Shown here piece after piece: positions 5,721 through 29,010 of a stretch of 40,921 nucleotides of DNA. The stretch lies in the IMG/VR virus record IMGVR_UViG_2740892440_000004, positions 1 through 40,921 of that record. One strand, given 5' to 3'. The position numbers and the translations under genes are program-made. Position 1 is the first letter of the stretch. Each line of letters opens with the position of its first letter. The notes beneath the pieces are model-generated. The model was not told the DNA's origin and did no database searches. It saw only the letters and a program-made list of their open reading frames with translations. This DNA comes from a virus (lineage: Duplodnaviria > Heunggongvirae > Uroviricota > Caudoviricetes).

Positions 5721-5878
5721 TGTATGTTATATCTATGTTTTAATTGGTTATTTATTTAAGTTGTTTTTGTTTGTATACCTAAGCGTATACCAATAGCGGG
5801 GTGCAATACTTATTGAACTTTAAAAAAATCACGCTAAATAGGTCTTCTATATTCAAAAAAACTCTTTTTTCAATAAAT

Positions 5879-5957: not shown

Positions 5958-5980
5958 ATAACTCTACATTCTTGTGCCAG

Positions 5981-6010
5981 CAAAAATAAAACCCGGCATC
6001 AGCCGGGTTA
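5981..6010 (-). terminator. rho-independent terminator downstream of the alpha operon
   Basis: perfect hairpin acccggc-atca-gccgggt followed on the minus strand by a T-run (plus-strand A-run 5982-5990). Confidence 0.5.
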
Positions 6011-6017
6011 GTTGTAA

Positions 6018-8351: not shown

Positions 8352-8365
8352 GATGCAGTTCTCCC

Positions 8366-8689
8366 TCAGTGTAAAACCGGCTTTATAATGTGACGGACGC
8401 ATAACTCATCCATTACGGCTATTCCGAGCTGGGAGAGTGCGGGGCAGGACATTAGAGGACCGGATTCCATCAGGTCTGAAAGCAGGGCGCAGGCGATTTC
8501 CATGCCTTTTGTTTGCCCGTGCTGTCGCAGATAAAAACCTTCAAGCTCACGGGCAATGGCGGTTTCAATTTCATCCAGAGTGAGCTGCAGGTGGCGGTTG
8601 TGCTGATGGCAGATACTCAGCCAGGCGCAGGCAACCGCGCGGCGATATAACGCCAGCCGAAGTGAGAGGGGAAGAGTGCGTGATTTCAT
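8366..8689 (-). CDS. hypothetical protein (107 aa) of the satellite early operon
   Basis: ORF whose start overlaps the upstream stop (ATGA) and whose end overlaps the alpha start. Confidence 0.5.
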
Positions 8690-8913
8690 TGCACCACCTC
8701 CTTGTTCATCAGGTCATCCTGGCAACGCTGTACCACGCCATCAAGCTGTTCTGTCATCAGATAAATCAGGGAAACCAGTTGCTCACATTGAGCACCTGCA
8801 GGTTTTTCATAGCAGTCCTGAAGAACAGCCATTCCGGTGACAAATTCCCCCACGTTACGAAGATGCTTGAGGCGGACAATATCGTCATAAGAAATTGCGG
8901 CGTGATTCATCAC
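8686..8913 (-). CDS. hypothetical protein (75 aa) of the satellite early operon
   Basis: ORF coupled by ATGA overlaps on both sides. Confidence 0.45.
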
Positions 8914-9101
8914 ATCACCTCCCCGGCAGGCAGCCGTGCAGAAAGGGAGAGCACATAATCACGGACCAGCGAAAGGCGTGCAAAGCGCTCATCGCAGGCC
9001 ACGGTGCGAAGCATACAGATGCGGGGTTGAGTGTCAGCACGGCGGATTGCGGCAAGCACAAAGACATATTGCGGGTAAAACGGGGTGAGGGTTGTAGCCA
9101 T
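8910..9101 (-). CDS. hypothetical small protein (approx. 63 aa); the longer 183-aa ORF in the track is probably not real
   Basis: GGAGG upstream of an internal ATG; the long version would span a terminator-like hairpin at 9308-9333. Confidence 0.3.
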
Positions 9102-9307
9102 GATGGCAGCCTCCATTGAGTAGCGGTTATTGCTACCACCGGAAACGCCAATTTCACTGGTGGCAGCCCGAACGGGGTTGGCGTAACCGGCCTCAATGGA
9201 TACCGGCCAGCCCGAAGGCTGCCCCGCCCGGACTGCCATTATCTCGAAAGAACCACGGTGTACGCATAAACACCACAGCCTGGAAAATGGGTGTGCCAGA
9301 GCTTCGA

Positions 9308-9333
9308 CGAAAAAAAAGACGCTTGGCGCGTCT
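9308..9333 (-). terminator. rho-independent terminator downstream of the alpA-like gene
   Basis: hairpin agacgc-ttggc-gcgtct followed on the minus strand by an 8-T run. Confidence 0.4.
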
Positions 9334-9460
9334 GGTGTCGCCATTGAGTTTCGCGGAACGCCAATTCCGGCTGCCGATTTTGCGGCAGCGGAAAAACTAT
9401 ACCTGGAAATGACTGCAGGATGCAAGCCAGAAAAATGGGGATTAATGCGTTCAGGCATCA

Positions 9461-9721
9461 TTATGCATCACATCCCCGTCCGCGGGCACTTATACGATCC
9501 GCCATCCATGCGCTTACCTCTGACTGTGCCCAGGCAACATTTTTACCACCAAGTGGGATCTGCTTCGGGAAAGCATCGCGGCTTATCAGGTCGTATATAG
9601 TTGAGCGGGACAAGCCGCATAAATGCATCACCTCGGGAAGACGTAAAAATCGCTCATGCTGGTTCAGCACAGGAAATAATGGCGCAGCCGGAGCTGGCGC
9701 AGAAACAGAAATATCATGCAT
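9461..9721 (-). CDS. alpA: AlpA-family prophage transcriptional regulator / excisionase-like DNA-binding protein
   Basis: 86 aa with HTH segment [39 protein letters not shown] characteristic of AlpA/Vis-type regulators of P4-like elements. Confidence 0.75.
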
Positions 9722-10283
9722 TTATCTACCCTCTTTAATTCCTTCATCAGTCCGGATAAATCCCCCCGGATTCAGGTAGTTCCTTATTATGTATATATTT
9801 CTCGCTTACGCACCCATTATTTATTTAGCGTCACATATTGATTTAATGGAATTTAAAACTATATCAAACCACATAAAATGGCATGATAGATATTATGTCT
9901 GCGAACTATAAATACAGGGACATTAATAGGAACTAACTTTCATCCAGGGGTTACTACCCCATAAGTCATAGAACTTAATGGTACTGAAACCGCAACCCAT
10001 TCAGCAGGGATGCACAATTTCTACATATGGCTTTACATTGCAAACCTAACTTCAGGATATACTCATGAATTGCATCAAGCTCAGAAGAATTAGAACCGCA
10101 TAAAATCAATAACCACGCATTCTTAACCTAAAAATATATCCAAATAAATTCATAAAAGACCGAGCAGTTCTAGTTTTATAAAAATCAGATTGAAATGCAA
10201 CACCAGGGAAAGGGGGGAATCATGTTATTTCCCGGCAAAGAAAAATCGTCTATTTCATCATCTGTTGAATACTACTGAAGAGT

Positions 10284-10480
10284 GGTGAATAGTTGTGAGG
10301 AACAATAATGAAATAATCATTCGGAATAAAAATTTCACTTTTGATGAAAAAAAATCATAAATCACGCTACCTTCCGATGAACACTCATGAACAGTCACTG
10401 AATACTGCCTTGTCAACCCTTCACCTCTTAACTAGCTGTATTATCAATTTTTTTATCAAAGTGAACAGTAGTGAATAGTA
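10284..10480. repeat. second iteron-like cluster (GGTGAATA, ATGAACAG, GGTGAAGG, GTGAACAG, GTGAATAG) in an AT-rich non-coding region; possible ori-like site
   Basis: at least five TGAAC/TA-type octamers in a 200-bp ORF-free segment about 4.4 kb from the cluster at 5879-5957. Confidence 0.3.
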
Positions 10481-10544
10481 TTTATTAAAGGAAAGTTGAA
10501 GATCAGACATGACACATTTCTCTGGCTAGCCAGAACAAGGTCAT

Positions 10545-10562
10545 TGTTCTGTCACTGACACA
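10545..10562 (+). promoter_or_regulatory. TGT-N12-ACA element (Ogr/Delta-dependent late promoter motif) upstream of the sid-like operon
   Basis: TGTTCTGTCACTGACACA about 75-90 bp upstream of the sid-like start, matching the P2/P4 late-activator site consensus. Confidence 0.5.
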
Positions 10563-10702
10563 ATCCCCCTCGGTAGTGCGCTTGTATGGGCATCGGCACA
10601 ATTGACACGACAACAAAACACTACCGGAGCATTCATGACTACTGTTAACCAGATCTCTGATGCAAACATTACATCCTCCCTCCCGCCGAAAATTCGCGAA
10701 GC

Positions 10703-11386
10703 GTGGAAAACGTTAAGGCAGCAAAAGCTGTCTGGCAGGAAGAACGGCGAAAACAAACTGAAGCTGCTGCAATGATTGAAACTATCCGTAAACGTCAGGA
10801 AGATACAAAAACGGAAACGCAGGCGCTTAATGATGAATGGCGAAACCTGTTTCGTGAGAATCAGGGAAATATGACACCACGCATGAAAAAACTGCGGGCA
10901 GAAATCGCCCTCGGACGCGAAACACTGGATGAGTTCGAAGATTTGCTGGCAGCTCAGGTGGCAGAAAATGAATTCCTGCCCTGGAAAACTGCGGATGCTG
11001 CAAACCACTACATCAGCGAACATAATCGCCTGATTGAAACTCATGCAGTGTGGCTCTGGAATGAGTTTATGAAGGAACACGGCCAGAAACTTATTCAGAT
11101 CCTTGGACTGTTGAAAATGACTCTGGGCCGAAGCGCTTCTGCTGTTATCGGTGTAGTTCATACCGTAAACGACCCCGAAAGTGTGCTGAAGCAATTTATC
11201 AGCGAGCAACTCACCACTCCGGCACTGTCCTGTAACGTATCTTCAACGGATGATATTACCCTGCCGGGGATCAGCATTTATGCGGACGATAAAGCCATCC
11301 AGGATGCCAGACAATCCCCCAGCCCTGCAGCGCGTTCACGGATGCTTAAACAGCGTGACATGGTTAAAGGGGGCGAGAAGAAATGA
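10703..11386 (+). CDS. putative Sid-like capsid size-determination (external scaffold) protein; probably starts at ATG 10635 with a frameshift near 10705
   Basis: first gene of a +strand operon followed by psu and delta; coiled-coil-like Glu/Arg/Ala-rich sequence; ATG 10635 has a GGAG RBS and reads into this frame if one base is restored. Confidence 0.45.
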   Translation: MENVKAAKAVWQEERRKQTEAAAMIETIRKRQEDTKTETQALNDEWRNLFRENQGNMTPRMKKLRAEIALGRETLDEFEDLLAAQVAENEFLPWKTADAANHYISEHNRLIETHAVWLWNEFMKEHGQKLIQILGLLKMTLGRSASAVIGVVHTVNDPESVLKQFISEQLTTPALSCNVSSTDDITLPGISIYADDKAIQDARQSPSPAARSRMLKQRDMVKGGEKK

Positions 11387-11937
11387 ATGCCGGAACCATT
11401 ACTCAGGAAGCTCTCAACGATTACCGCTCGGCGATAAAAAGCTGGCTGACACTACGTAATACGCAAAGTACCTACCAGCTTCGTCTGGCGGCTCTGCTGA
11501 ATACTGAAGAAAAACCGGCAGCATATGCCAGCCAGCTTGAGGAGCTTCGTGAGCGTCTTGCTGTCCTCGAATGGCAGATTAACTGTGCTGCACGGGATGG
11601 TCTTTATGCTCACCAGATTGTGCTGGAGAGTTGTGTTACAAGCGCAACGGAAAACTTCATGAGCGAGCATGGTGATGCACTCACTGACGCACTGGCTCCT
11701 TTTCTTTGCGCTCCATACGGGCTTGAGGCGGCAATGAAAATATTACGAACCGCTGTAGCCCGACAAACGGAAGTGCGTACTCCGGTAATTTCAGCAGCAT
11801 ACAAGAGCATTATCGACGAAACCGGATTAACGGTGGATGCATCAATGTACGCTGATGCTTCAACCAGTTTCACCCCGGCACAACATAAAGTTTTCCTGGC
11901 CCGCCTTAACCGACTTAATGAAAAAGGAGGGTACTGA
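11383..11937 (+). CDS. psu: Psu-like polarity suppression (capsid decoration) protein
   Basis: 184 aa; ATGA overlap with upstream gene; segments ...MSEHGDALTDALAPF... and ...FTPAQHKVF... resemble P4 Psu as recalled. Confidence 0.7.
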   Translation: MNAGTITQEALNDYRSAIKSWLTLRNTQSTYQLRLAALLNTEEKPAAYASQLEELRERLAVLEWQINCAARDGLYAHQIVLESCVTSATENFMSEHGDALTDALAPFLCAPYGLEAAMKILRTAVARQTEVRTPVISAAYKSIIDETGLTVDASMYADASTSFTPAQHKVFLARLNRLNEKGGY

Positions 11938-11938
11938 T

Positions 11939-12211
11939 ATGGCCCTGAAGTGTCCTGAATGTGGGACGGTCGCTCACGCCAGAACCAGCGCCTATGAAGC
12001 TCCATCGGTTAAACGCTCATGGTATCAGTGCCAGAATCTGGAATGTTCCTGCACATTTACCGCTCTGGAAAGCGTGGATACGATAATTATGAAGCCTTGG
12101 CGCAATGAACAGGAATCAGACAAAGAACAAATGCCAGAAAAACAACAGCAAACTCTCAACCGCTATGGCTCCGCGTCAAAGCTGTCAAGCCGTCAGCTAA
12201 TTCCTGTCTGA
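11939..12211 (+). CDS. Delta/Ogr-family zinc-finger late-gene activator
   Basis: MALKCPECGTVAHARTSAYEAPSVKRSWYQCQNLECSCTF matches the Ogr/Delta C-x2-C...C-x4-C pattern (CPxCxxxAHARTS...YxQCxN). Confidence 0.8.
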   Translation: MALKCPECGTVAHARTSAYEAPSVKRSWYQCQNLECSCTFTALESVDTIIMKPWRNEQESDKEQMPEKQQQTLNRYGSASKLSSRQLIPV

Positions 12212-12234
12212 TTAGCAAAATACGCCCACGTAGT

Positions 12235-12259
12235 CCCGGTCCAGTACCGGGATTTTTTA
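12235..12259 (+). terminator. rho-independent terminator after delta
   Basis: hairpin cccggt-ccagt-accggg followed by ATTTTTT. Confidence 0.55.
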
Positions 12260-12289
12260 CGCCTTTTCCCTGGCTGGCCTGAAGGCGTA

Positions 12290-12445
12290 TGAGTGCATAT
12301 CTATAGCGCATGAAAACGCATGAGTCTCATGCGCCATTTTTGACGCGAAAGCCCTTGTGTGGTGGCTTCTGAGACGATTTACGGGGTGCATGAAAACCAG
12401 TCTGTTAAGCGAAGCGGGCAGGCGGGCGGGGCAGCGCACGCTGTG
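12290..12445. other. cos-like packaging site of the P4-like satellite (candidate)
   Basis: approx. 150-bp non-coding block homologous to 26830-26990 (shared ggtgcatgaaaacca and aagcgggcaggcg); core GGCGGGCGGGGCAGCGCAC at 12421-12439 resembles the recalled P2/P4 cohesive end GGCGAGGCGGGGAAAGCAC. Confidence 0.4.
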
Positions 12446-12636
12446 TATGGTCAAAGTAACTTTTAACTTTCAATGAGTACCTGATTGAAAGAATCGTTTA
12501 TCACGTTAAAGCGATAACAATGATTTTAAGCAGCGAGTGTGGTGTAAGTATCATTGTCGAGTAAAAATGTTGCAAGCTATTGAAATAAGTATATATTGCA
12601 AATGATGAGGAAAATAAAATATGCAAGGACCTACTC

Positions 12637-13578
12637 ATGGATGCACTGCATGTCGCGCTTGAAAATCTGATTAGAGATGATGGTCAAACACTAAATAGTT
12701 ATTTTAGTGAAGTTAAAGTTAATTCATTGATTGAAAATACAAATGCAACTTGTCATTTTCATTGCCTTAATCTTGATGGCAATGGACGTCCTCGGGTAGA
12801 CGCGTTAATCCAATTCTTGAACGATAAAGTAGTTGATTATGCTATTCCAAGGAAAAAAATCAATGAGGCAGTGCAATATTTTAATGAAACACAATCAACA
12901 GCGAAAATAACAAAATTAGCAAATCAAGCAAAAAAATTATTTACTAGGCTTGCAAATAGTGGCGAAGGCGGTGAATTTATTCTTTTTTTATTTGCAGAGC
13001 AATTCCTTAGATTTCCACAAATTATTTGCAAAATGAGCCTGAAAACGAGTTCTCAAATGCATTACCATGGTGCAGATGGAATACATATAGGCGTAGATAA
13101 AGATAATAAAAAATTATGTTTATACTGGGGCGAGTCTAAACTCTATTCCAATCTGAGCAAAGGTATTTCTGAGTGTATGGATAGTATAGCTCCATTACTT
13201 CAAAGTTCTATGGGAATAGAAGGCGCTGAGACACGTGATATGCAGTTGCTGGAGTCGCACTTAAATGTTGATGATATAGAACTAGAACAAGCGTTGAAAA
13301 GATTCTTAGATCCTGATAGCCCGGATTTTAATAAATTGGAATACAGAGGAATATGCTTAGTTGGGTTTGATCTTAAAGATTATCCACAAGGGCCCAGTTC
13401 AATTGATATCAGTGAACTAGTTGCTTTGATTAATACTAAAGTCGGGAAATGGTCAACTAGTGTGCAAGGTGGTATAGTTAATAAAAAACTTGATCGCTTT
13501 GCTATGCATGTTTTTATTCTTCCTTTTCCTTCAGTAAAAGCATTTAGGGCTAGTTTAATTAAAGCATTGGAGAGTTGA
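12637..13578 (+). CDS. cargo protein 1 (313 aa) with a PD-(D/E)xK-like nuclease motif; candidate defence effector
   Basis: low-GC ORF; segment HGADGIHIGVDKDNKKLCLYWGESK has D...D...ExK spacing typical of PD-(D/E)xK nucleases. Confidence 0.6.
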   Translation: MDALHVALENLIRDDGQTLNSYFSEVKVNSLIENTNATCHFHCLNLDGNGRPRVDALIQFLNDKVVDYAIPRKKINEAVQYFNETQSTAKITKLANQAKKLFTRLANSGEGGEFILFLFAEQFLRFPQIICKMSLKTSSQMHYHGADGIHIGVDKDNKKLCLYWGESKLYSNLSKGISECMDSIAPLLQSSMGIEGAETRDMQLLESHLNVDDIELEQALKRFLDPDSPDFNKLEYRGICLVGFDLKDYPQGPSSIDISELVALINTKVGKWSTSVQGGIVNKKLDRFAMHVFILPFPSVKAFRASLIKALES

Positions 13579-13579
13579 A

Positions 13580-15514
13580 ATGTCGTTGCGAGATTTATCT
13601 GGGTGGTTGATTAAGAATCAAGGATTCTTAAGAAAATATCAGGCATTAGTCGCTAACTCGATAAAAGATCAATTTCCAGAGTTAAAATCAGATGTAATCC
13701 CACAGATTAGTTCTGAGGATGTCGGCTATCTTTTAACATGTGCTAGTTCTTTGGCTTTCTCAAGTGATGAGAAATGCCAAGATGCAGCCTTAAGGATTGC
13801 ACAGTATTGCTTATTGAATGAAAAAAGTGAAGCAAGAAAAGATAGTGCTGCATTAATTCTTGATTCATTATCTAATAATCCAGCAATACAACTTGCTGAA
13901 AATAGGGGGTATCTTAACCCTGATTTCGAAGAAAGATTACCCTTAAAGGCTCAGTTAGAACTAACTAAAAGAAAAATTCTATATACAATTGAAATAGATG
14001 CTGATAAGCATATTTATGCTAATAGGTTTCAATCAGAGTTTTGGGATGCGGTACAAGAAAACTCATGGGTTAGTGTCTCTGCTCCTACCTCTGTAGGAAA
14101 ATCATTTATCCTGGAATCTTGGGTGGAGCAGTTTGTAAAAAGAAATAAGAATTGCTTAGTTATTTATATCGTACCAACAAGGGCATTGATTTCAGAAGTA
14201 TATTCTGAGTTGCAAAAACGTTTGGATCCTAATTTAACAAATATAGTTAATATTCAGACACTACCATTGAGTAATGTATACCAGAGCGAAAAATCTAATG
14301 TCTTCATATTTACACAGGAAAGATTAAATTTATTCTACAATCATTTCTCACAAATTCCAAAGATAGACGTCTTAGTTGTTGATGAAGCACACAAGATCGG
14401 TGATGGTGGAAGAGGTGTTATTCTTCAACATGTAATTGAACTGACTTGTCTAAATAACCCTGATTCAAAAGTTATCTTTGCAAGTCCTTTCACCTTAAAT
14501 CCTGAAATATTGCTCAGTGATGCTCCAATATTAAAAAACAAAAGAACTATAAAAAGTGACTATGTTACAGTTAATCAAAATTTAATATGGGTAGAACAAA
14601 AACCACGCAAGACCAAAGATTGGTTGATGTATTATTTTGCAAACGGTGAAAAACGCGAGTTAGGAAACTTTTCTTTAGAAAATGCACCATCTCCTGAAAG
14701 TAAAAGATTGCCTTTTGTAGCTCTTTGTTTAGGTAAGGGGGCTTCTGGTAACGTAGTTTACGTAAATGGAGCCGCTGAAGCAGAATCTACTTCCAAGCTA
14801 ATATCTGCAAGTATAGAAAATGAGACTGAGGATGAAGAAATTTTAGCTCTCGTTGAGCTTAGTGAGACAATTATACATAAAAATTTCGCATTAAATCGCA
14901 CTCTAAAAAAGAGAGTCGCTTTTCATTATGGCAACATGCCTTTAATAATAAAGGGCGAGATTGAACGATTGTTTAGTAAAGGTAAGATTGATTTTTTAAT
15001 TTGTACCTCAACTTTAGTTGAGGGCGTAAACATGGCTTGTAAAAATATTTTTATAAGAGGCCCTAAAAAGGGTAATTCAACCCCGATGCGAGAAGAGGAT
15101 TTTTGGAATCTTGCTGGCAGAGCTGGTCGTTGGGGAAAAGAATTCCAAGGTAATGTCATCTGCATCGATAGCGACAATGAAAAAATTTGGAATGGAGAGC
15201 CTCCAAAAACCAAAAAAAATATATTTATAACTCGCGCCACGGATGCTATTTCCCATGACATGGATAAGTTGGTTTCCTATATTTTTTCAGAGCATCATTT
15301 TGGTATGTCTGAGCGGAATCCTAATCTCCAGAGTCTATTTAGTTATTTATGTTCATCATTTTATTTTTATAATGGCTTGGATAATAATCCTTACATGGAA
15401 AAGTACAATATAAAAAATATCGATGTTTTAAATGAAGCAATATTTGATGTTTTTGATTCTTTAACTTTTCCACACGAATTGGTTGTGCGGCATCCTGGTA
15501 TAAGCCGCTTTTAA
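13580..15514 (+). CDS. cargo protein 2: superfamily-2 DEAH-box helicase (644 aa)
   Basis: motif I APTSVGKS, motif II VVDEAHKI, motif V TSTLVEGVN, motif VI NLAGRAGRWG; starts 2 bp after gene 1. Confidence 0.8.
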   Translation: MSLRDLSGWLIKNQGFLRKYQALVANSIKDQFPELKSDVIPQISSEDVGYLLTCASSLAFSSDEKCQDAALRIAQYCLLNEKSEARKDSAALILDSLSNNPAIQLAENRGYLNPDFEERLPLKAQLELTKRKILYTIEIDADKHIYANRFQSEFWDAVQENSWVSVSAPTSVGKSFILESWVEQFVKRNKNCLVIYIVPTRALISEVYSELQKRLDPNLTNIVNIQTLPLSNVYQSEKSNVFIFTQERLNLFYNHFSQIPKIDVLVVDEAHKIGDGGRGVILQHVIELTCLNNPDSKVIFASPFTLNPEILLSDAPILKNKRTIKSDYVTVNQNLIWVEQKPRKTKDWLMYYFANGEKRELGNFSLENAPSPESKRLPFVALCLGKGASGNVVYVNGAAEAESTSKLISASIENETEDEEILALVELSETIIHKNFALNRTLKKRVAFHYGNMPLIIKGEIERLFSKGKIDFLICTSTLVEGVNMACKNIFIRGPKKGNSTPMREEDFWNLAGRAGRWGKEFQGNVICIDSDNEKIWNGEPPKTKKNIFITRATDAISHDMDKLVSYIFSEHHFGMSERNPNLQSLFSYLCSSFYFYNGLDNNPYMEKYNIKNIDVLNEAIFDVFDSLTFPHELVVRHPGISRF

Positions 15515-16161
15515 TGCAAAACCTTTGGGATAGATTTTCGCGGGATACAAACAAACCTGTAGAGAGATTACTGCTTTCTGAACCTGGTAGTAATGATGCG
15601 TTAGATTCATATGTATCCGCATTCTCTAGAATTAGTGATACTCTGAGTAAGAAGCTAGGTTATAATTCAAAAGGAGCTTACGTACAGGCCTTGTTAGTTT
15701 CCAAGTGGATGAAAGGTTATCCCCTAGCAAGATTGATCTCGGATAGAATAAGATATAACAAAAAGAAAAATATTGTTTTCAAAGAAGCGACTTTAATACG
15801 AGGGGTTATGAAGGATGTTGAAGAGATCGCTCGCTATCAAGCTCCAAGGCTTTTAGGATGTTATAATGATTTATTAAAAAGCTTTTATCTTTCGATAGAT
15901 CGCACAGACTTAGCAAAAGATGTTGAAGATATCGGTGTTTATTTAGAACTGGGTGTAAGTTTAAAAACTCAGATTTCACTAATAGGGCTTGGCTTTTCAA
16001 GAACTGCTGCTGTAATGATTTCAGAGCTTATTCCTAATGATAGTTTAGATGAGGAAGAATGCATTAATTGGATTAAGGACAATAAAGTTGACATGGAAGA
16101 ACTGCCACAATTAGTTCAAAACGAAATACATAATATATTTCGTAACTTTTGGGTACAATAG
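15514..16161 (+). CDS. cargo protein 3 (215 aa), unknown function; coupled to the helicase by TAATG overlap
   Basis: low-GC ORF immediately following the helicase in a different frame. Confidence 0.6.
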   Translation: MQNLWDRFSRDTNKPVERLLLSEPGSNDALDSYVSAFSRISDTLSKKLGYNSKGAYVQALLVSKWMKGYPLARLISDRIRYNKKKNIVFKEATLIRGVMKDVEEIARYQAPRLLGCYNDLLKSFYLSIDRTDLAKDVEDIGVYLELGVSLKTQISLIGLGFSRTAAVMISELIPNDSLDEEECINWIKDNKVDMEELPQLVQNEIHNIFRNFWVQ

Positions 16162-16192
16162 TCTTATTTAGACGATTTTTTAAACAATCAAT

Positions 16193-16240
16193 AGAGAAGT
16201 TTTTGAATTTTATCATTCTTCCAGTAACAAAAACTTCTCT
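16193..16240. terminator. long-loop hairpin between convergent cargo genes (possible bidirectional terminator)
   Basis: 12-bp inverted repeat agagaagttttt / aaaaacttctct separated by 24 nt, flanked by T-runs. Confidence 0.3.
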
Positions 16241-16253
16241 TTTATAACACCGC

Positions 16254-16711
16254 TCAGGCTATTCCAGAATAGGCTTTGCTTACTTCACTATGCCTTGTGC
16301 CGCAATGCCTCAAAATAACAAGGCCATGTTGCAGTAACGCCTCACTACGTTCAGGTTCAAACCATTTCCCGTTAAATTTTCCTCCGTGAAAAAGATTGTT
16401 TCTTACACGGCGGATTAACAAAAAAAGAAATTTTGCTAAATCTTTTTCTTGTGGTAAAGAATCATCCAAACTAAAGAGTCATCTTCTATGATTTGTTTTT
16501 TGGGTGGGTGTTCTTTAAAGTAGGTGATAGCAGCAATTAGCTCTGGATCAGTTGTGTTATTTATGATTTCAGAAACTTGCTTTGCATACTCATCCCAGTT
16601 CGCTTTAGCATCTTTTATTTTATGATGAAGTCCACATGCCTTAAGGCAATATTCATAACGTGAAAACTCTCTAAAGAATTCATAACATAAATTATCTAGA
16701 TTATTCTCCAT
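16254..16711 (-). pseudogene. HEPN-like small protein (Rx4H motif), split into two ORFs by an apparent 1-bp G-run contraction
   Basis: ORFs 16436-16711 and 16254-16469 overlap; restoring one G in tttgg-atg fuses them into approx. 160 aa; C-terminal part contains IRRVRNNLFHGG, i.e. R-x4-H as in HEPN RNase motifs. Confidence 0.45.
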
Positions 16712-16740
16712 GAACTATATCTCCATGTATAACAAGTTAA

Positions 16741-17940
16741 CTAATATTGATTGCGCTCGTACACTTTTTGGCCCCACCAATTCATAAGTCCTATTCGTTG
16801 CTCAAGGTAAGTTGAACGATTATATGCTCTGCGCACTTCATTTTTATCACTATGTGCAAGAGCAGCCTCAATTACATCTGCATTAAAACCCGCTTCATTT
16901 AATGCGGTGCTGGCAATTGAACGCAATCCATGAGCAACCAATCTACCACCAAATCCAATCCTTTTTAAAGCAGCATTTGCCGTCTGGCTATTCATTGGTT
17001 GCTTTGGGTCATTCCGACTCGGGAAAACATGTTCACGATGGGCACTGATTAGCTTCATCACATCAAGAATCTCTAATGCCTGAGGAGATAGAGGGACTAT
17101 GTGTTCCCGCTTAGCCTTCATTCGTTCAGCTGGGATAGTCCAGAGCTTTGCATCGAGATCGAGCTCAGCCCACCTAGCACCGGAAGCCTCAGAAGGACGA
17201 ACTAGAGTCAGGAGTTGCCACTCAATGAGGCAGCGAGTCGGAACAGACAAATTTGACATGACGAGAGAACGCATCAGCATAGGCAATTCTTCTGGGCGCA
17301 ACGTAGGCATATTTTGTTTTTTTGGCTTCTCAAAGGCCATTCCAATGCCTGATGCTGGATTGGCATCAATAAGACCAGTATTTACGGCATAAATCATTAT
17401 CTCGTTAACACGCTGCACCAACCGGCGCACCGTCTCCAGCGCCCCACGAGCTTTGATCGGTTCAAGGGCTTCAACCAGTGTTCGGGCTTTGATTTGCTGG
17501 ACAGGGATCTCCCCGATGGTGGGGAATACGTCTTTTTCCAGTGAACGCCATATATCTTTAGCGTAATCATGGGTAACGCTTTTGCTTTTGAGCTGGAACC
17601 AGTTAGCGGCGACCGTCGAAAAAATACTGTCCAGAGCGATTTGCTGCTGTTCCTCTGCAACTTCAGCTTGAATTTGCGGGTCGATTCCGTTGGCTAATAG
17701 GGCAAGGTAATCTGCTCTTAACCCTCGGGCATCAGCAAGAGAAAGGGCAGGAAAAGCACCAAGTCCCATCATAGTCCGCTGTTTTGTTGCTGGGCGTTGA
17801 TAGCGAAAGCGCCAGAGTTTCTTGCCGCTAGTTTTCACTATCAGGAAAAGCCCATCGCCATCATGCAGCGTTAGATCCTTCTCTAACGCTTTCGCGCGCA
17901 GAACTTCGGTGTTGGTCAGGGGGCGTGTTGTCCGTGCCAC
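16741..17940 (-). CDS. int: P4-type tyrosine integrase
   Basis: 399 aa; catalytic segments AHGLRSIASTAL (HxxR) and RAYNRSTY (Tyr); positioned next to the tmRNA-derived att fragment. Confidence 0.9.
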   Translation of the reverse strand: MARTTRPLTNTEVLRAKALEKDLTLHDGDGLFLIVKTSGKKLWRFRYQRPATKQRTMMGLGAFPALSLADARGLRADYLALLANGIDPQIQAEVAEEQQQIALDSIFSTVAANWFQLKSKSVTHDYAKDIWRSLEKDVFPTIGEIPVQQIKARTLVEALEPIKARGALETVRRLVQRVNEIMIYAVNTGLIDANPASGIGMAFEKPKKQNMPTLRPEELPMLMRSLVMSNLSVPTRCLIEWQLLTLVRPSEASGARWAELDLDAKLWTIPAERMKAKREHIVPLSPQALEILDVMKLISAHREHVFPSRNDPKQPMNSQTANAALKRIGFGGRLVAHGLRSIASTALNEAGFNADVIEAALAHSDKNEVRRAYNRSTYLEQRIGLMNWWGQKVYERNQY

Positions 17941-18050
17941 TGTGGCCGCTCCTTCATGAATTGGTATACGCTTTTAGGTATACATCCTACCGTATACCGA
18001 AACGTATACCAATAATCATCGGATTTAGCCGGATGTTCTCGGACAACGAC

Positions 18051-18088
18051 AAACACAAAAAAGCCCGCAGCTTGTGCCATGCGGGCTT
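18051..18088 (-). terminator. rho-independent terminator between the att fragment and the satellite integrase
   Basis: 9-bp stem aagcccgca / tgcgggctt with 10-nt loop, followed on the minus strand by TTTTGTGTTT. Confidence 0.4.
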
Positions 18089-18122
18089 TCTGTACTTCAC
18101 CGGACGTATCCGGATCATTATT

Positions 18123-18167
18123 TGGTGGAGCTGGCGGGAGTTGAACCCGCGTCCGAAATTCCTACAT
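18123..18167 (-). other. 45-nt copy of the tmRNA (ssrA) 3' end: attachment-site junction between the P4-like element and the 186-like prophage, not a complete tmRNA gene
   Basis: reverse complement reads ATGTAGGAATTTCGGACGCGGGTTCAACTCCCGCCAGCTCCACCA, the T-arm/acceptor/CCA end of enterobacterial tmRNA; match stops after 45 nt and upstream sequence is unrelated AT-rich DNA. Confidence 0.8.
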
Positions 18168-18252: not shown

Positions 18253-19314
18253 TTAATCCTCTGCCGCCAAAGTGCCGCCATCATCAACTGTCACCGGTTT
18301 CTCCATTACGTATGCTGACCATTCAGGAGAATAGAATGGTTGCAAAAATTTAGAAAATTGTTCTGTATCAAATTTAATTTCACCAATGTACAAGTAGTTA
18401 TATATATTACTGTAGTTTTGAAGCTGAAATCCGTAAGCTAGTTTTAATATCTTTTTAGATAGATAAAATGCAGCCTCAAGTGATTCGGCTAACATTGATT
18501 CTGTAGGGGTGAACGTTCTTATTTTAGTGCCGTTGATTTTTAACTCTATATAGGCTATCGAGATACAATCTACGCATAAAGTATCTAATAATTTAGCTAT
18601 GTTATATGAAATTGTATTTAATCTGGTAAGGTAATCTTCTGCATTTGAATGGGGTGTAACCTTATCTTTTGATAAGTTATTATTAATGGTATCTAGGATT
18701 GACAATATGCTTTTTTTAAAGTTCTCGTCTGGTGAATAATTGGATGTGATATCCATTGACGATTCTGTATATATATTGGAATATAATAAGTATGGGTTTG
18801 AGATTTTAATTTCATGAGTTGTTAGTATTTTAATTTTGTTGCTATCATTGTAATTATAATATTTTGATGCGTCATCTACAAAGCTTTGCATCGTAAAGCT
18901 TGATATTTCTTTAATTTTATCTACGAAATTTTTCTCATGAGCAAAATGTCTATCGATTGCATTTTTGATTTCAGATGAATTAATTTGTGCTTCGGTTTGT
19001 ATCGTTCTGTGAATGTTATTTACTATGGAAGCTAATGGTACAGAACTTGCGAGTATCAATAATGGGAATTTGCTTATCTCATAGAATCTGGCATATCCGT
19101 GAGCAGAAAGAACAGGTATTTTACCAAACCATGCAAATGCTCCAAAATAAATGAATGACAGCAGTGGTACTGCAATTGAAATCCAAAATAATTTCTGTTG
19201 AAATAAATTTCTTTTATCGAGAATGTACCACTTTTTATATATTGATACAAACGCAAAAAGAATAATTGCCAAAATATACACAATAATTCCAGTAAAGCTA
19301 GTATTAATGTTCAT
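18253..19314 (-). CDS. low-GC membrane protein (353 aa, three N-terminal TM helices plus approx. 250-aa soluble domain); moron co-transcribed with the phage integrase
   Basis: start ATG overlaps the integrase stop (ATGA); hydrophobic segments FTGIIVYILAIILFAFVSIY, LFWISIAVPLLSFIYFGAFAWF, FPLLILASSVPLASIV; AT-rich relative to neighbours. Confidence 0.7.
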   Translation of the reverse strand: MNINTSFTGIIVYILAIILFAFVSIYKKWYILDKRNLFQQKLFWISIAVPLLSFIYFGAFAWFGKIPVLSAHGYARFYEISKFPLLILASSVPLASIVNNIHRTIQTEAQINSSEIKNAIDRHFAHEKNFVDKIKEISSFTMQSFVDDASKYYNYNDSNKIKILTTHEIKISNPYLLYSNIYTESSMDITSNYSPDENFKKSILSILDTINNNLSKDKVTPHSNAEDYLTRLNTISYNIAKLLDTLCVDCISIAYIELKINGTKIRTFTPTESMLAESLEAAFYLSKKILKLAYGFQLQNYSNIYNYLYIGEIKFDTEQFSKFLQPFYSPEWSAYVMEKPVTVDDGGTLAAED

Positions 19315-20332
19315 ATAATATTTAAATTAAATAGTGGGTTTTTAGTTACTGCATCTTCAAGATGCTCTGGTGAAAAATGGGCATAAACCATAGTCATCTT
19401 AATATCTGAATGCCCTAAAATATCCCTCAAAACGAGTATGTTTCCGCCATTCATCATGAAGTGACTGGCGAATGTGTGGCGCAGTACATGGGTGCATTGG
19501 CCTTCTGGCAGCTCAATACCCGCGCGTTTAACCGCCCGCTCAAAGGCTTTTCTACATGGAGTGAATAGCTTCCCTCTGTTTTTGGGGAGTTCATCATACA
19601 GATCCTGAGATATCGGCACAGTACGGTTTTTCTTGCCTTTTGTTTTTGTATAAGTAATTCGGTATTTCGATATTTGATGGCCCTGCAGATTTTCGGCTTC
19701 ACTCCACCGTGCGCCAGTAGCTAGGCATATTTTTGCAATCATTAGTAAGCTAGGGCTTTGAGATTCAGCACATGCCGCCAACAGGCGCTTGATTTCGTCC
19801 GTGGAAAGAAAAGCCAGCTCACCTTCGGCAATTTTGAAGGTCGGAAGTCCTGCCAGCGGGTTTGGTGCTGACCAGTGTCCTAGTTTTTTTAATGTACCGA
19901 ACACAGATGATAGATTGCGCTGTTCAAGGTTTACCGTGCGGGGCTTAACGGGCGACATAAGCGTGCCATCTTCATTTCGTATTTCACCTTTTAACCGTGC
20001 TTCGCGGTATTTTGTAAAGTCACCAGCTGTCAGTTCTGAGGCGATGGGATCGCCTAGACCATTACAGATAATTCTAAGTTTCGCCATGAGGCGCTTGGGG
20101 TCTGCGAGTGTTTGACCATATAGGGAATACCAAAGCTCAATTAATTCTGATAGCGTCGCCGATCATCCTTTTCACCCAACCACGGTTTTTTATTCACTTC
20201 TTCCATTGTGAAGCTTTCAAACGCAATGGCTTCGCCTTTCGTGGCAAATTGCTTACGCACGCGCTTGCCATTGCGTCCATTGGGATAGCACTCACACAAC
20301 CATTTTCCGTTCGGCTGTTTTCTGATGGTCAT
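19311..20332 (-). pseudogene. int: P2/186-type tyrosine integrase, frameshifted near 20130-20140
   Basis: N-terminal ORF (20141-20332) MTIRKQPNGKWLCECYPNGRNGKRVRKQF... and C-terminal ORF (19311-20087) with HVLRHTFASHFMMNGGNILVLRDILGHSDIKMTMVYAHF; combined length approx. 337 aa. Confidence 0.8.
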
Positions 20333-21877: not shown

Positions 21878-22078
21878 ATGCTGACGAAAGAACCATCATT
21901 TGCATCGCTGCTGGTAAAACAAAGTCCGGCAATGCACTACGGTCACGGCTGGATCATGGGTGAGGATGGTAAACGCTGGCATCCGTGCCGTTCGCAAGAT
22001 GAATTGTTGGCAGAACTATCAACGAAAAAACGGGGGAACAAATGGCTATTGAAGGCGCTGCGGCGACTGTTCCATTAA
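21878..22078 (+). CDS. hypothetical early protein (66 aa)
   Basis: ATG with GAGG RBS; may be fused with the next ORF if a G is missing from the GGGGG run at about 22030. Confidence 0.4.
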   Translation: MLTKEPSFASLLVKQSPAMHYGHGWIMGEDGKRWHPCRSQDELLAELSTKKRGNKWLLKALRRLFH

Positions 22079-22383
22079 GCCCAGGTGAACGCCTGAATGG
22101 ACTTAATCATATTGCGGAATTAAGGGCGAAAGTATTTGGCCTGAATATTGAGTCAGAGCTTGAGCGGTTTATTAAAGATATACGTGATCCACGGGATGTT
22201 AATTATGAACGAAATAAACGAGCACTGGCTGCTATATTCTTTATAGCAAAAATTCCAGCTGAACGTCATAGCATCAGCATTAATGAGCTGACCACTGACG
22301 AAAAGCGGGAGTTGATTAAAGTAATGAATCATCTTCGTGCAGTGGTGAGCTTATTTCCCAGACGGCTAGCCATGCCGAATTAA
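22042..22383 (+). CDS. hypothetical early protein (113 aa)
   Basis: ORF with G-rich RBS. Confidence 0.45.
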   Translation: MAIEGAAATVPLSPGERLNGLNHIAELRAKVFGLNIESELERFIKDIRDPRDVNYERNKRALAAIFFIAKIPAERHSISINELTTDEKRELIKVMNHLRAVVSLFPRRLAMPN

Positions 22384-22450
22384 CCAATTAATGAAATTCA
22401 TGGCGTAAACCCGCCGGGTATTCCTTTATCTAAATTCAGGAGAATTGATT

Positions 22451-22684
22451 ATGCGTAATATTGAAACCCTCTCGACTAAAACCGGACCGGATGACGCAGG
22501 ACTTAATATTTTACTGACAGAGGCTCGTCTGGAAGAACGTCGGGCAAGAGCTGAAGCAATGGCAGCTCGCCTTGATAGCCTTGCGTGCCATATCACATCC
22601 CGCCAGCTAAACCACGTTGAAGCGGCTGAACTGCTGCGTGTGGCAGCTGAAGCAATCCAGAACGAAGCGCAGGAGATCCACTAA
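22451..22684 (+). CDS. hypothetical early protein (approx. 77 aa)
   Basis: AGGAG RBS 6 nt upstream of ATG 22451. Confidence 0.45.
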   Translation: MRNIETLSTKTGPDDAGLNILLTEARLEERRARAEAMAARLDSLACHITSRQLNHVEAAELLRVAAEAIQNEAQEIH

Positions 22685-22911
22685 TGGCTGATGCAATGGA
22701 TCTCGTACAGCAGCGCGTTGAAGAAGAACGCCAGCGTCATATCCGTGCTGCCCGTGCCAAAACGCCGGGCGTGTCCCGCGTGCTTTGCATTGAGTGTGAA
22801 GCGCCAATTCCGCCAGCACGCCGCCGTGCCATTCCGGGTGTGCAGCTTTGCATTACCTGTCAGGAAATCGCAGAGCTGAAAGGCAAACATTACAACGGAG
22901 GTGCTGTATGA
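22684..22911 (+). CDS. TraR/DksA-family C4 zinc-finger protein
   Basis: CIECEAPIPPARRRAIPGVQLCITCQE, a C-x2-C...C-x2-C motif typical of phage TraR/DksA-like proteins. Confidence 0.7.
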   Translation: MADAMDLVQQRVEEERQRHIRAARAKTPGVSRVLCIECEAPIPPARRRAIPGVQLCITCQEIAELKGKHYNGGAV

Positions 22912-23765
22912 GCACCATCCTGAAATGGGCGGGAAATAAAACCGCCATTATGTCCGAACTGAAAAAGCATCTTCCTGCTGGCCCGCGACTGGTTGAACCT
23001 TTCGCGGGTTCCTGTGCAGTGATGATGGAGACGGAGTACCCCAGCTATCTTGTTGCGGATATTAATCCTGATTTAATCAACCTCTATAAAAAGGTTGCTG
23101 CTGATTGTGAATCGTTTATATCTCGCGCCAGAGTTTTATTTGAGATCGCAAACAGGGAGGTGGCTTATTACAACATAAGGCAGGAGTTTAATTACTCAAC
23201 TGAAATTACTGATTTCATGAAAGCGGTATATTTCCTGTATCTCAATCGTCACGGTTACCGTGGTTTATGTCGCTATAACAAGAGCGGGCATTTCAACATT
23301 CCCTACGGTAATTATAAAAATCCGTATTTCCCTGAAAAAGAAATTCGCGCATTTGCAGAAAAAGCCCAGCGAGCAACGTTTATCTGCGCCAGCTTTGATG
23401 AAACGCTGGCGATGTTGAAGGCGGGGGATGTGGTGTATTGCGATCCGCCGTATGACGGTACGTTTTCCGGCTATCACACTGATGGTTTCACTGAAGATGA
23501 CCAGTATCACCTGGCATCCGTTCTTGAACATCGGTCATCAGAAGGACATCCGGTCATTGTTTCTAACAGTGACACATCCCTGATCCGTTCGCTGTATCGC
23601 AATTTTACTCACCACTATATCAAGGTAAAACGCAGCATCGGTGTGGCAGCTGGCGAGGGTAAATCAGCAACAGAAATCATTGCTGTTTCCGGGCCGCGCT
23701 GCTGGGTGGGATTTGATTATTCGCGTGGCGTGGATAGTTCTGCCGTGTACGGAGTACGTGCATGA
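22908..23765 (+). CDS. dam: DNA adenine methyltransferase (Dam-like, N6-adenine)
   Basis: N-terminal LKWAGNK...EPFAGSCAV (SAM-binding) and catalytic DPPY ([13 protein letters not shown]). Confidence 0.85.
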
Positions 23766-26175
23766 GCCATGCCGATATGAACAACTGCTGCGGCTTTAAC
23801 GAGGCTGCCGCAGCGTTCTCATGGAACAGCCCGAAAAAGGCCATTAACCCTTATCTGGACCCGGCGGAAGTTGCGCCGGTTTCTGCGCTTTCAAACCTGA
23901 TCGCTCTGTACGCTGCCGATAACGAGCAGGAACACCTGCGCCGCGAGGCACTGAGTGATCAGGTCTGGGAGCGTTATTTCTTTAATGAATCCCGTGATCC
24001 TGTCCAGCGCGAAATGGAGCAGGATAAGCTCATTAGTCGGGCAAAGCTGGCGCATGAGCAGCAGCGTTTTAATCCAGATATGGTCATTCTGGCGGACGTC
24101 AATGCCCAGCCTTCCCATATCAGCAAGCCGCTGATGCAACGTATTGAATACTTCAGCAGCCTGGGCAGGCCAAAGGCTTATTCCCGCTATTTGCGTGAGA
24201 CGATTAAGCCATGTCTGGAGCGACTGGAGCATGTACGCGACAGCCAGCTATCTGCATCTTTTCGTTTTATGGCAAGCCATGTAGGGCTGGACGGCCTGCT
24301 GATTCTGCCTGAAATGAGTCAGGATCAGGTGAAACGCCTGTCTACTCTTGTCGCTGCGCATATGAGCATGTGTCTTGATGCCGCTTGTGGTGATTTGTAC
24401 GCCACCGATGACGTTAAGCCAGAAGAAATCCGCAAAACATGGGAAAAGGTGGCAGCGGAAACCCTGCGTCTGGATGTTATTCCGCCTGCGTTTGAGCAAC
24501 TCCGTCGGAAAAGAAACCGCCGTCAACCCGTGCCCTATGAACTCATTCCGGGTTCGCTGGCGCGTATGTTGTGTGCCGACTGGTGGTACCGGAAATTATG
24601 GAAAATGCGTTGCGAATGGCGGGAAGAGCAGTTGCGTGCTGTCTGCCTGGTCAGCAAAAAAGCATCTCCCTATGTCAGCTATGAAGCCGTGATTCATAAA
24701 CGTGAGCAGCGCCGCAAGTCACTGGAGTTTTTCCGTTCTCATGAACTGGTGAACGAAGAGGGCGACACGCTGGATATGGAAGACGTGGTAAACGCCAGCA
24801 GCAGCAACCCGGCGCACCGCCGCAATGAGATGATGGCCTGTGTTAAAGGTCTGGAGCTTATCGCGGAAATGCGCGGTGACTGCGCCGTTTTCTACACCAT
24901 TACCTGTCCGTCACGTTTCCATTCCACGCTCAATAACGGCAGACCAAACCCAACCTGGACAAATGCGACGGTAAGACAAAGCAGCGATTATCTGGTCGGC
25001 ATGTTTGCTGCATTTCGTAAGGCGATGCACAAAGCCGGGTTGCGCTGGTATGGCGTGCGGGTGGCTGAGCCGCATCATGACGGTACAGTTCACTGGCACC
25101 TGTTGTGTTTCATGCGCAAAAAAGACCGCCGCGCCATTACTGCATTGTTGCGTAAGTTTGCCATCCGTGAAGACCGCGAGGAACTGGGTAATAACACTGG
25201 TCCACGCTTTAAATCTGAGCTGATAAACCCGCGCAAAGGAACGCCGACAAGCTACATCGCGAAATACATCAGTAAGAACATTGACGGGCGTGGTCTGGCT
25301 GGCGAGATCAGCAAGGAAACGGGTAAATCCCTGCGTGATAACGCTGAATACGTTAATGCCTGGCGTCTCTGCATCGTGTACAGCAATTCCGCTTCTTTGG
25401 TATTCCGGGACGTCAGGCTTACCGTGAACTTCGCTTGCTGGCTGGTCAGGCGGCAAGGCAACAGGGTGACAAAAAAGCAGGTGCGCCGGTACTGGATAAC
25501 CCGCGTCTTGATGCCATTCTGGCTGCTGCTGATGCTGGTTGTTTTGCCACCTACATCATGAAGCAGGGCGGCGTACTGGTTCCCCGCAAATATCACCTCA
25601 TCAGAACCGCTTATGAAATCAACGAAGAGCCGACCGCCTATGGCGATCACGGCATTCGTATTTATGGCATCTGGTCACCCATTGCAGAGGGCAAGATCTG
25701 CACTCATGCAGTGAAGTGGAAAATGGTTCGTAAGGCCGTTGACGTTCAGGAGGCGGCAGCCGACCAGGGCGCTTGCGCCCCTTGGACTCGTGGCAATAAC
25801 TGTCCCCTTGCTGAAAATTTGAACCAACAGGAGAAAGATAAATCAGCTGATGGGGACCCCAGAACGGACATTACCAGCATGGATGACAAGGAGTTGCACG
25901 ATTACCTGCACAGTATGAGCAAAAAAGAGCGCCGGGAACTGGCAGCAAGGTTATGCCTGGTGAAACCGAAACGGCGTAAAGACTACAAACAGCGAATTAC
26001 AGACCATCAGCGACTGCAGCTCGTGTATGAGCTGAAGTCCAGAGGATTTGATGGCAGCGAGAAAGAGGTCGATTTACTCCTTCGCGGAGGCAGTATTCCG
26101 TCAGGAGCAGGCCTGCGTATCTTCTATCGGAGCCAGCGTTTGCAGGAAGATGATCAGTGGCGGAACCTGTATTAA
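23762..26175 (+). pseudogene. P2 gpA-family replication initiation endonuclease, frameshifted at about 25363
   Basis: HUH-like [11 protein letters not shown] and catalytic tyrosines YIAKYISKN; frame a ends in junk after ...EYVNAW while frame b continues [29 protein letters not shown]...; restoring one G in tgg-cg fuses approx. 805 aa. Confidence 0.8.
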
Positions 26176-26267
26176 TTACGCGGGTTAACAATTCGTGCTC
26201 TTAATAATACCAGGCATATCAGGCTGATGAATGTAAAAAAACGTTTTACATCAGTAAGATTATTATA

Positions 26268-26287
26268 TACTGTAAATATAAACAGTG
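26268..26287. promoter_or_regulatory. LexA (SOS) box
   Basis: TACTGTAAATATAAACAGTG fits CTG-N10-CAG SOS-box consensus; lies 40 bp upstream of the small ORF / DinI-like operon. Confidence 0.6.
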
Positions 26288-26328
26288 GTTATACATACAG
26301 TATTGCGTGTGGTGTCATAGGAGGAAAG

Positions 26329-26517
26329 ATGCAGGACTATTTTTTGGAGTCTTTGAAGCTCCAGCGCATTGATTTTTTTCTTAAGCTTGTAGCGGCTAGT
26401 GAGTGTAGTGATGAAGAGAAGGGGCTGGCTCTGCAGTGGGTTTCTGAATTGACTGATGAACTCATGGCAAAAATCAGAACCCACGAATACAACCGCTCAA
26501 TGGATGTCATCAGCTGA
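26329..26517 (+). CDS. hypothetical small protein (62 aa) in SOS-controlled operon
   Basis: GGAGG RBS then ATG 26329. Confidence 0.45.
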   Translation: MQDYFLESLKLQRIDFFLKLVAASECSDEEKGLALQWVSELTDELMAKIRTHEYNRSMDVIS

Positions 26518-26527
26518 GGTGACTTTT

Positions 26528-26761
26528 ATGCGCATTGAAATAATGATCGATAAAGAGCAGAAGATTAGCCAGTCTACCCTGGACGCCCTTGAATCCGAGC
26601 TTTACCGCAATCTGCGCCCCCTGTATCCCAAAACGGTAATTCGCATTCGCAAAGGTAGCTCTAACGGTGTGGAACTAACCGGACTGCAACTGGACGAAGA
26701 AAGAAAACAAGTGATGAAAATTATGCAGAAGGTGTGGGAAGACGACAGCTGGCTGCATTAA
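26528..26761 (+). CDS. DinI-like protein (Tum/antirepressor C-terminal-domain-like)
   Basis: 77 aa MRIEIMIDKEQ...LYRNLRPLYPK...VWEDDSWLH resembles the DinI family (MRIEV...E.W....W). Confidence 0.7.
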   Translation: MRIEIMIDKEQKISQSTLDALESELYRNLRPLYPKTVIRIRKGSSNGVELTGLQLDEERKQVMKIMQKVWEDDSWLH

Positions 26762-26799
26762 GAAACGTTGCTGGCGTCTGAACTTGCTTCTGGCGTCAG

Positions 26800-26995
26800 C
26801 AAGGTTGAACAACGAGCCCTTGCGAGGCGTTAGCTCTGTAGTGCATGTCTATGCCGCATGAGATCGCATGATCGTTTGAGGATCGTTTTTGCTAAGGCCC
26901 GCCAGAACTGGCGGGCTTTTGCGTAGCTCATGCAGGTGCATGAAAACCACTACATAAAGCGGGCAGGCGTGGCGGGGATACGAGCGCGCGAAATC
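26800..26995. other. cos-like packaging site of the 186/P2-like prophage (candidate)
   Basis: non-coding; core GGCGTGGCGGGGATACGAGC at 26966-26985 shares its first 13 nt with the recalled 186 cohesive end GGCGTGGCGGGGAAAGCAT; homologous to the satellite block at 12290-12445. Confidence 0.4.
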
Positions 26996-27131
26996 CCTTA
27001 CTATGAAGAAAAGTGTGACTTAATTACCAACCAGGGTTAAGCTTTGATTCATATTGAGAGTAAGTTGAACTAGAATATTTTAACAGAGAGGAACCACTGA
27101 GCGGTGGTGTTTTTTTGAACAAGGAGCAATT

Positions 27132-27827: not shown

Positions 27828-27836
27828 GGTGATGCT

Positions 27837-29005: not shown

Positions 29006-29010
29006 TTTTC

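Follow-up and report, generated by a model that had tools for sequence, protein, structure and literature searches.

Two short open reading frames (ORFs) overlap on the minus strand of a 40,921-nt stretch of viral DNA (the window), between a phage integrase gene and the Hachiman genes hamA and hamB. The locus raises the question of whether these ORFs are one gene or two, what kind of protein they encode, and whether this protein belongs to the system next door or stands by itself. A preliminary description had read them as one HEPN-like gene split by an apparent single-G deletion. Our main reading, which we hold at a probability of about 0.6, is that they represent a single gene, intact in nature and interrupted here by an undercalled GGG, which encodes a 152-residue member of the HEPN superfamily (here mini-HEPN) and is carried as low-GC cargo at a psu-int position, independently of Hachiman.

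The satellite locus and the missing base

The gene is carried by a P4-like satellite that has ssrA as its integration site. The repeat at the integrase-side border of this satellite, which we take to be the 3′ end of ssrA, corresponds to the attachment site (Table 1); in strain 789, a full ssrA adjoins the same integrase. In the RefSeq annotation of identical loci, the gene order is ssrA, integrase, mini-HEPN gene, HamB, HamA, ogr/delta, psu and a psu-like gene, followed by an alpA-type HTH gene, an icd-like gene, DUF5375 and the primase. The mini-HEPN gene thus falls between psu/delta and int, where Rousset et al. 2022 (PMC9122126) place the psu-int defence hotspot in satellites of this type. 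Hachiman is also found in P4 hotspots (PMC13586616).

The integrase gene lies upstream on the same strand, with a gap of 29 nt between its stop codon and the mini-HEPN gene. The low GC content and the convergence with the helicase operon, both pointed out in the preliminary description, are confirmed: the GC content is 35.8% for the mini-HEPN gene and 34.6% for hamAB, against 47.3% for the window, and the gene lies on the strand opposite to the HamA/HamB operon. An A/T-rich inverted repeat between the two convergent units may serve as a bidirectional terminator for the mini-HEPN gene and hamB. It was missed by a consensus terminator scan, and in the vicinity of the mini-HEPN gene neither promoters nor terminators scored above shuffled expectation in a consensus scan.

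Table 1. Coordinates of features in the 40,921-nt window.
Feature	Position	Strand	Basis or remark
C4 antisense RNA	9156-9243	-	Rfam, 84.6 bits
isrK	9312-9389	-	Rfam, 76.7 bits
hamA, Hachiman neighbour	12637..13578	+	HamA1 E 9.5e-136; PF08878
hamB, Hachiman helicase	13580..16161	+	HamB profile; split by one-base deletion at 15505
A/T-rich inverted repeat between convergent mini-HEPN gene and hamB	16190..16243	.	16-nt arms, 22-nt loop
152-aa standalone HEPN-like gene	16254..16711	-	base restoration; reads as 91-aa and 71-aa ORFs
Codons R104-N105-N106-L107-F108-H109 (Rx4H), putative HEPN catalytic site	16386..16403	-	sequence and family alignment
Missing-base site	16465..16466	.	CC here, CCC in 20 reference genomes
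Codons E20-Y-C-L-K24, upstream E-x3-K motif typical of HEPN domains	16640..16654	-	family alignment; motif per PMC3710099
P4-type tyrosine integrase	16741..17940	-	Arm-DNA-bind_3, Phage_int_M, Phage_integrase
Presumed ssrA (tmRNA) 3′ end repeat, attachment site, integrase-side satellite border	18123..18165	-
One-base deletions, satellite and flank	2216, 5557, 10703, 15505, 16466, 18070		comparison with strain 789
One-base deletions, P2-like prophage	20153 (integrase), 25362 (gpA), 29439 (portal), 35617, 40860		comparison with P2-like relatives

The surroundings of the satellite deserve a brief description. The two RNAs at 9156-9389 make up the immunity-RNA region of a P4-like satellite. The satellite (~5700-18165) and a P2-like helper prophage (18200-40921) lie in tandem at the ssrA site, and each carries its own low-GC cargo. 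In the prophage, four low-GC ORFs of 231, 215, 173 and 353 aa, at 27132-29005 (+) and 18253-19314 (-), fill the P2 gpA-portal and att-integrase hotspots. These four ORFs have no Pfam or PADLOC match and are candidate defence cargo; strain CV839-06 has an anti-phage dCTP deaminase at the att-int position.

The two minus-strand ORFs span 16254..16469 (71 aa, TTG start, carrying LIRRVRNNLFHGG) and 16436..16711 (91 aa, ATG start), and overlap by 34 nt. Base-by-base comparison with reference sequences showed that the plus strand is one C short of a CCC run at 16466, corresponding to GGG>GG on the gene strand (gtttgg-atgat); this is the single indel inside the gene. Restoration of this base yields a 152-aa product that is exactly RefSeq WP_016809720.1, a protein labelled as hypothetical. 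A megablast search with positions 16150-16800 against 5,426 complete E. coli genomes identified 20 that carry this stretch, with 651 window bases matching 652 record bases at 99.7-99.8% identity, and the gene is intact in all 20. The intact protein is present on at least 1000 contigs from E. coli, Klebsiella, Salmonella and others. The deletion of a single G that splits one gene is therefore borne out, as is the fusion into one protein, which is 152 aa long and not approximately 160 aa as estimated from the window. The outcome that the preliminary description gave as a refutation, two genuine separate tiny ORFs, does not apply, given a continuous gene in 20/20 genomes and many homologues. Programmed frameshifting was dismissed, as all other copies are continuous ORFs.

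The missing base is not an isolated event. Compared with near-identical genomes, the 41-kb window contains at least 11 one-base deletions in G/C runs and zero insertions. Over the 18.2 kb that span the satellite and its flank, the window differs from strain 789 by 5 substitutions and 6 deletion events, with all deletions on the window side and in G/C runs. Five further deletions, again with no insertions, were found in the prophage, where positions 22042-40921 were compared with a P2-like prophage of ~99% identity and the integrase segment (19336-20332) with a relative of ~86% identity. The probability that all 11 events would land in G/C runs is ~1.7e-4, and 10/12 contexts are GGC/GCC. Neither the A/T runs of at least 6 nt (0/65) nor the G/C runs of at least 5 nt (0/30) in the window are affected. 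The neighbouring hamB gene is broken in the same way, by CCC>CC, into ORFs of 644 and 215 aa, which map to a single HamB profile at 1-648 and 652-860, respectively.

A real frameshift would mean that the gene is a recent pseudogene in this strain, perhaps owing to toxicity of its product, and that the satellite and prophage are a decaying pair. Loss or inactivation of defence genes is frequent, and the 91-aa fragment does recur on one public contig only, SRR1599278_416 (L099) from the Logan assembly of run SRR1599278, which repeats the deletions at 16466 and 15505 and is otherwise identical to window positions 13436-18065. However, this contig has an additional GG>G deletion at ~129 (window ~17937) that truncates the start of the integrase, so that assemblies of apparently matching material disagree at G-runs. 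Moreover, at 11 deletions and no insertions per 41 kb, a genome would carry roughly a thousand frameshifts and would not be viable; no living genome could sustain one every ~4 kb. The events fall in short G/C runs, whereas the long A/T and G/C runs favoured by replication slippage are spared, and the substitution divergence of the satellite from its relatives is just ~0.03%. We consider a real frameshift improbable. Since the deletions in G/C runs number at least 11, with no insertions, and the second assembly has one more, the split is most likely an artefact; based on the deletion pattern, it very probably arose in sequencing, from the platform or in assembly. Thus, the one-base deletion of the preliminary description stands, and a biological event such as pseudogenisation very probably does not, as the same type of deletion occurs at 11 or more sites in the window.

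For annotation, this means that the apparent pseudogene is not to be trusted and that any split gene in this assembly is suspect. The same error in G/C runs falsely breaks the HamB helicase and the P2 integrase, gpA and portal genes.

Conserved motifs and predicted fold

In the definition of Anantharaman et al. 2013 (PMC3710099), HEPN domains carry an Rx4-6H motif, in which the arginine is usually followed directly by N, D or H, and further upstream an acidic residue that is part of E-x3-[KR]; they fold into a bundle of helices, with an insert separating helices 2 and 3 and the Rx4-6H motif closing helix 3. The restored protein has all of these sequence features: Rx4H, the polar residue N105 and E20-x3-K24. 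The R-x4-H arrangement noted earlier in the C-terminal part is present as R104-H109 and is kept across the family. In an alignment of 139 divergent relatives (A3), E20 is found in 139/139 sequences, K24 in 137, R104 in 138, N105 in 137 and H109 in 136; other highly conserved positions are W39 (138/139), P70 (139/139), K112 (136/139) and R122 (132/139). Both R104 and H109 are invariant in a further alignment (A1). The R-x4-H motif is meaningful because it is conserved family-wide, as such a spacing in one 152-aa protein would be unremarkable by chance.

The structure prediction called for in the preliminary description was carried out with AlphaFold2 and gave a confident model (pLDDT 92.5, pTM 0.87), which is predicted to be helical with the Rx4H motif ending a core helix. 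R104-H109 lie at the C-terminal end of a helix formed by residues 92-108, which is followed by a hairpin loop (111-118) and a helix (124-140). The model has one long N-terminal helix and no clear helix-1/helix-2 hairpin. Foldseek searches of the PDB and BFVD with the model identified nothing significant, and an HMM search against PDB sequences gave no match.

Profile searches place the protein near two known HEPN clades. No curated HEPN model in Pfam, NCBIfam or PADLOC matched it at threshold; these scans returned just spurious Cas8c matches (E about 0.01), and PHROGs assigned it to phrog_19013, whose function is not known. Among the 139 relatives, the commonest Pfam matches, all weak, are HEPN_Apea (4 members, best E 2e-4) and HEPN_Swt1 (2 members). 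An hhalign comparison with the profile of a bona fide Swt1-HEPN domain aligned VRRVRNNLFHGGKF in register with LxDVRNKLSHNExF (RNxLxH), a local match over 27 columns with a P value of 6.8e-4 and a probability of 27%. Taken together, the motifs, the model and the weak matches make membership of the HEPN superfamily very likely. The earlier HEPN-like reading is thus upheld by motif conservation and finds no counterpart in curated models at threshold or in Foldseek matches. The opposing view, in which a helical domain of another kind has acquired the Rx4H spacing by coincidence, is very unlikely, considering the near-invariance of the motif residues.

The features shared with the HEPN RNases, of which the ApeA and Swt1 clades are nearest, are E-x3-K, R-N-x3-H and a predicted all-alpha core (PMC3710099), together with a motif that ends a core helix and a setting in defence islands and mobile elements. 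Compared to the ApeA and Swt1 clades, mini-HEPN is a minimal standalone domain of 150 aa with two inserted beta-hairpins, and its extended invariant block (HGGKF, PPKKQ, W39 and W82) is undescribed for these families. ApeA (Gao_Ape) resembles it as a single-gene HEPN system present in P4 hotspots (HEPN_Apea, Rousset 2022 Table S1). Membership in ApeA was rejected, however: about 300 aa of ApeA make up an N-terminal domain, ApeA-NTD1 (PMC3710099), whereas the protein described here is a single domain of 152 aa that has no ApeA-NTD1 and no PADLOC ApeA match.

HEPN toxins that are paired with MNT nucleotidyltransferases carry an Rx4HxY variant of the motif. Where such HEPN-MNT pairs (e.g. PDB 5yep, 7ae2, 8xdj and 1wwp) have Rx4HxY, mini-HEPN has RNNLFHGG; the equivalent of G111 is a glycine in 126/139 relatives, and tyrosine is never among the top residues at this position. 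With the wrong motif variant and no adjacent MNT nucleotidyltransferase, either here or in 79 other loci (see below), assignment to the HEPN-MNT systems was rejected. DS-28 of DefensePredictor is another small HEPN protein from E. coli, a 163-aa 'HEPN family nuclease' with a 252-aa partner, and belongs to a validated anti-phage system (PMC13092281). It differs from mini-HEPN in being a two-gene system, and hhalign covered just 16 columns (E 0.16), which indicates a different sequence family. Identity with the 'Putative HEPN' construct pFR103 of Rousset was likewise rejected, as the sequences are unrelated.

Family distribution and neighbourhoods

The family is large and patchily distributed. 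Homology searches returned 696 homologues as clusters at 90% identity. At 50% identity and with E below 1e-3, there were 2,037 representative clusters, almost all of them single-domain proteins of 145-175 aa. Homologues are present in 205 of 185,579 species genomes, from Proteobacteria, Acidobacteriota, Deinococcota, Planctomycetota, Nitrospinota, Binatia and others. In a phage collection, distant homologues (29% identity) were found in just four E. coli temperate phages, among tail genes. One of these regions, in Escherichia phage vB_EcoM-689R2 (L100, 3926-4438), has the homologue amid tail and baseplate genes, consistent with moron-type cargo. A single cluster, represented by the 349-aa protein P0130, is a genuine fusion of Mrr_cat (residues 61-171) and mini-HEPN (201-348). 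Two other proteins, P0142 (337 aa) and P0160 (347 aa), have N-terminal extensions without a Pfam match.

This is a new family of a well-known kind, whose members are already in databases as hypothetical or 'Apea-like HEPN' proteins. We found no description, name or experiment for any member in the literature, and the gene is neither named nor tested in the text or the available supplements of PMC9122126 and PMC13586616.

The preliminary description had left two possibilities for the gene, a separate single-gene Abi module or a partner of its neighbours. We surveyed the neighbourhoods of 79 diverse loci by clustering four genes on each side (ORFs of at least 70 aa). No neighbour family is common to more than five loci, and no conserved antitoxin, MNT or Hachiman partner was detected in the 79. 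The suggested antitoxin or MNT neighbour was not seen among these ORFs, either in the window, where the gene is flanked by the integrase and hamB, or as a recurrent neighbour elsewhere. Proteins with at least 91% identity always occur in the same satellite lineage, beside Hachiman. The next relatives, at 51-67% identity, are found at other sites. One lies on a Pantoea island adjoining a resolvase and a DUF2188 gene, another follows a DUF4365 nuclease gene on an ssrA island of Enterobacter, and a third occupies the icd end of an e14-like prophage in E. coli. Hachiman is missing from the contexts of P0008, P0049 and P0080 and from the operonic neighbours in the 79 loci. A role as a third Hachiman component was therefore rejected, since the context varies and there is no co-occurrence beyond the proteins of at least 91% identity; adjacency to Hachiman is limited to near-identical satellites, which removes the helicase operon as a partner. 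The gene resembles other cargo of P4-like psu-int hotspots in its position, its low GC content and its co-residence with a known system, here Hachiman.

The type of neighbourhood, by contrast, recurs. In 44/79 loci, the mini-HEPN gene starts within 120 nt of the end of a same-strand gene, and the stop codon of the one often overlaps the start codon of the other. Same-strand genes at such distances include those for short pAgo, AbiEii, AbiJ_NTD4, Abi_C, SduA_C, GIY-YIG and Mrr_cat proteins, as well as DNA methylases, AAA_13, PDC-S06 and PDC-S32; AbiEii is the sole nucleotidyltransferase among 63 operonic neighbour proteins (1/63). In L043 (5146-8453) and L054 (5213-8453), mini-HEPN is the third gene of a SPARDA-like arrangement, after DUF4365(DREN)-APAZ and short pAgo, with stop/start overlaps. 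The same three-gene layout is present in L045, L056 and L037, and these are genomes of Alphaproteobacteria/Rhodobacterales. The start codon also overlaps the upstream stop in L024, where the gene follows Abi_C, and in L025, where the order is AAA, Peptidase_S8, AbiJ_NTD4, mini-HEPN and integrase. A similar island layout, consisting of an AAA ATPase with Peptidase_S8, DUF4365 or AbiJ_NTD4, mini-HEPN and an integrase, is seen in distant taxa (L019/L012 in Enterobacter, and L025-L027 in Mesorhizobium and Aliihoeflea). The orientation relative to integrases differs between loci.

These arrangements could suggest that the protein is not autonomous, and instead acts as an accessory or effector subunit of the system that it accompanies at a given locus (Hachiman, short pAgo or Abi), or as a helper of the integrase. 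The frequent upstream genes within 120 nt, with partners such as DUF4365-APAZ plus short pAgo, Abi_C, AbiJ_NTD4 and DNA methylase, agree with this, as does the position 29 nt after int on the same strand in the window. However, the upstream partners are mutually unrelated, with the largest common family reaching 5/79; the gene is convergent, and not co-transcribed, with hamAB here; the adjacency to Hachiman is confined to one satellite lineage; the integrase orientation is variable; and the family is overwhelmingly standalone. Dependence on a neighbour thus seems unlikely. The gene is a mobile and modular cargo gene of defence islands and mobile elements that usually stands alone. Of the two possibilities left by the preliminary description, the independent module is retained and the partner is not, as the 79 loci lack a common neighbour. 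Beside Hachiman, mini-HEPN is most plausibly an independent single-gene module.

Proposed function

By analogy with known HEPN RNases, mini-HEPN would form a homodimer in which the paired R104/N105/H109 motifs, aided by E20 and K24, make up a metal-independent RNase site. Phage infection would release the protein from an inactive state, and the active protein would then cut host or phage RNA (tRNA or mRNA), such that translation is halted and the infection aborted. We infer the RNase activity, the dimerisation, the trigger and the anti-phage phenotype by such analogy only; an Abi or toxin function is suggested by the domain and its context. A substrate or ligand might be contacted by the conserved PPKKQ hairpin, by W39/W82 and by the HGGKF block.

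If such an RNase is expressed constitutively and has no antitoxin, its activity would have to be gated in some way. ApeA cuts tRNA anticodon loops upon activation by a small ligand, and assembles into doughnut-shaped oligomers with a ligand pocket (bioRxiv 10.64898/2026.01.26.701840). Ligand-activated ApeA could be a plausible model for the gating of a HEPN protein that has no partner, although mini-HEPN has neither the N-terminal domain nor the oligomeric build of ApeA.

HEPN domains are found in toxin-antitoxin systems and in RNA processing too (PMC3710099). The protein could have a housekeeping role for mobile elements, such as RNA processing or ligand binding, or it could be a toxin with an overlooked small antitoxin, for which the exclusion of small ORFs and RNAs from the neighbour survey leaves room. 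Against the toxin, the 79 loci have no MNT or other recurrent neighbour, and the motif reads H-G-G where MNT-associated HEPN toxins have H-x-Y. Against housekeeping, the spread is patchy and the gene sits at cargo sites of defence islands and mobile elements. We regard both of these roles as unlikely. A self-contained anti-phage RNase, or alternatively a plug-in terminal effector that has been repeatedly appended to unrelated defence operons, is a possible, still tentative, description of mini-HEPN.

If true, this would define a new class of minimal abortive-infection modules, which would include those in SPARDA-like DUF4365(DREN)-APAZ/short-Argonaute operons. The proteins constitute a large HEPN-like family without a Pfam, NCBIfam or PADLOC model, and their genes occupy validated hotspots for defence systems in satellites and prophages. 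As a candidate for a minimal single-gene anti-phage RNase, mini-HEPN is cheap to test, and it offers a test case for how a HEPN nuclease without a partner stays silent.
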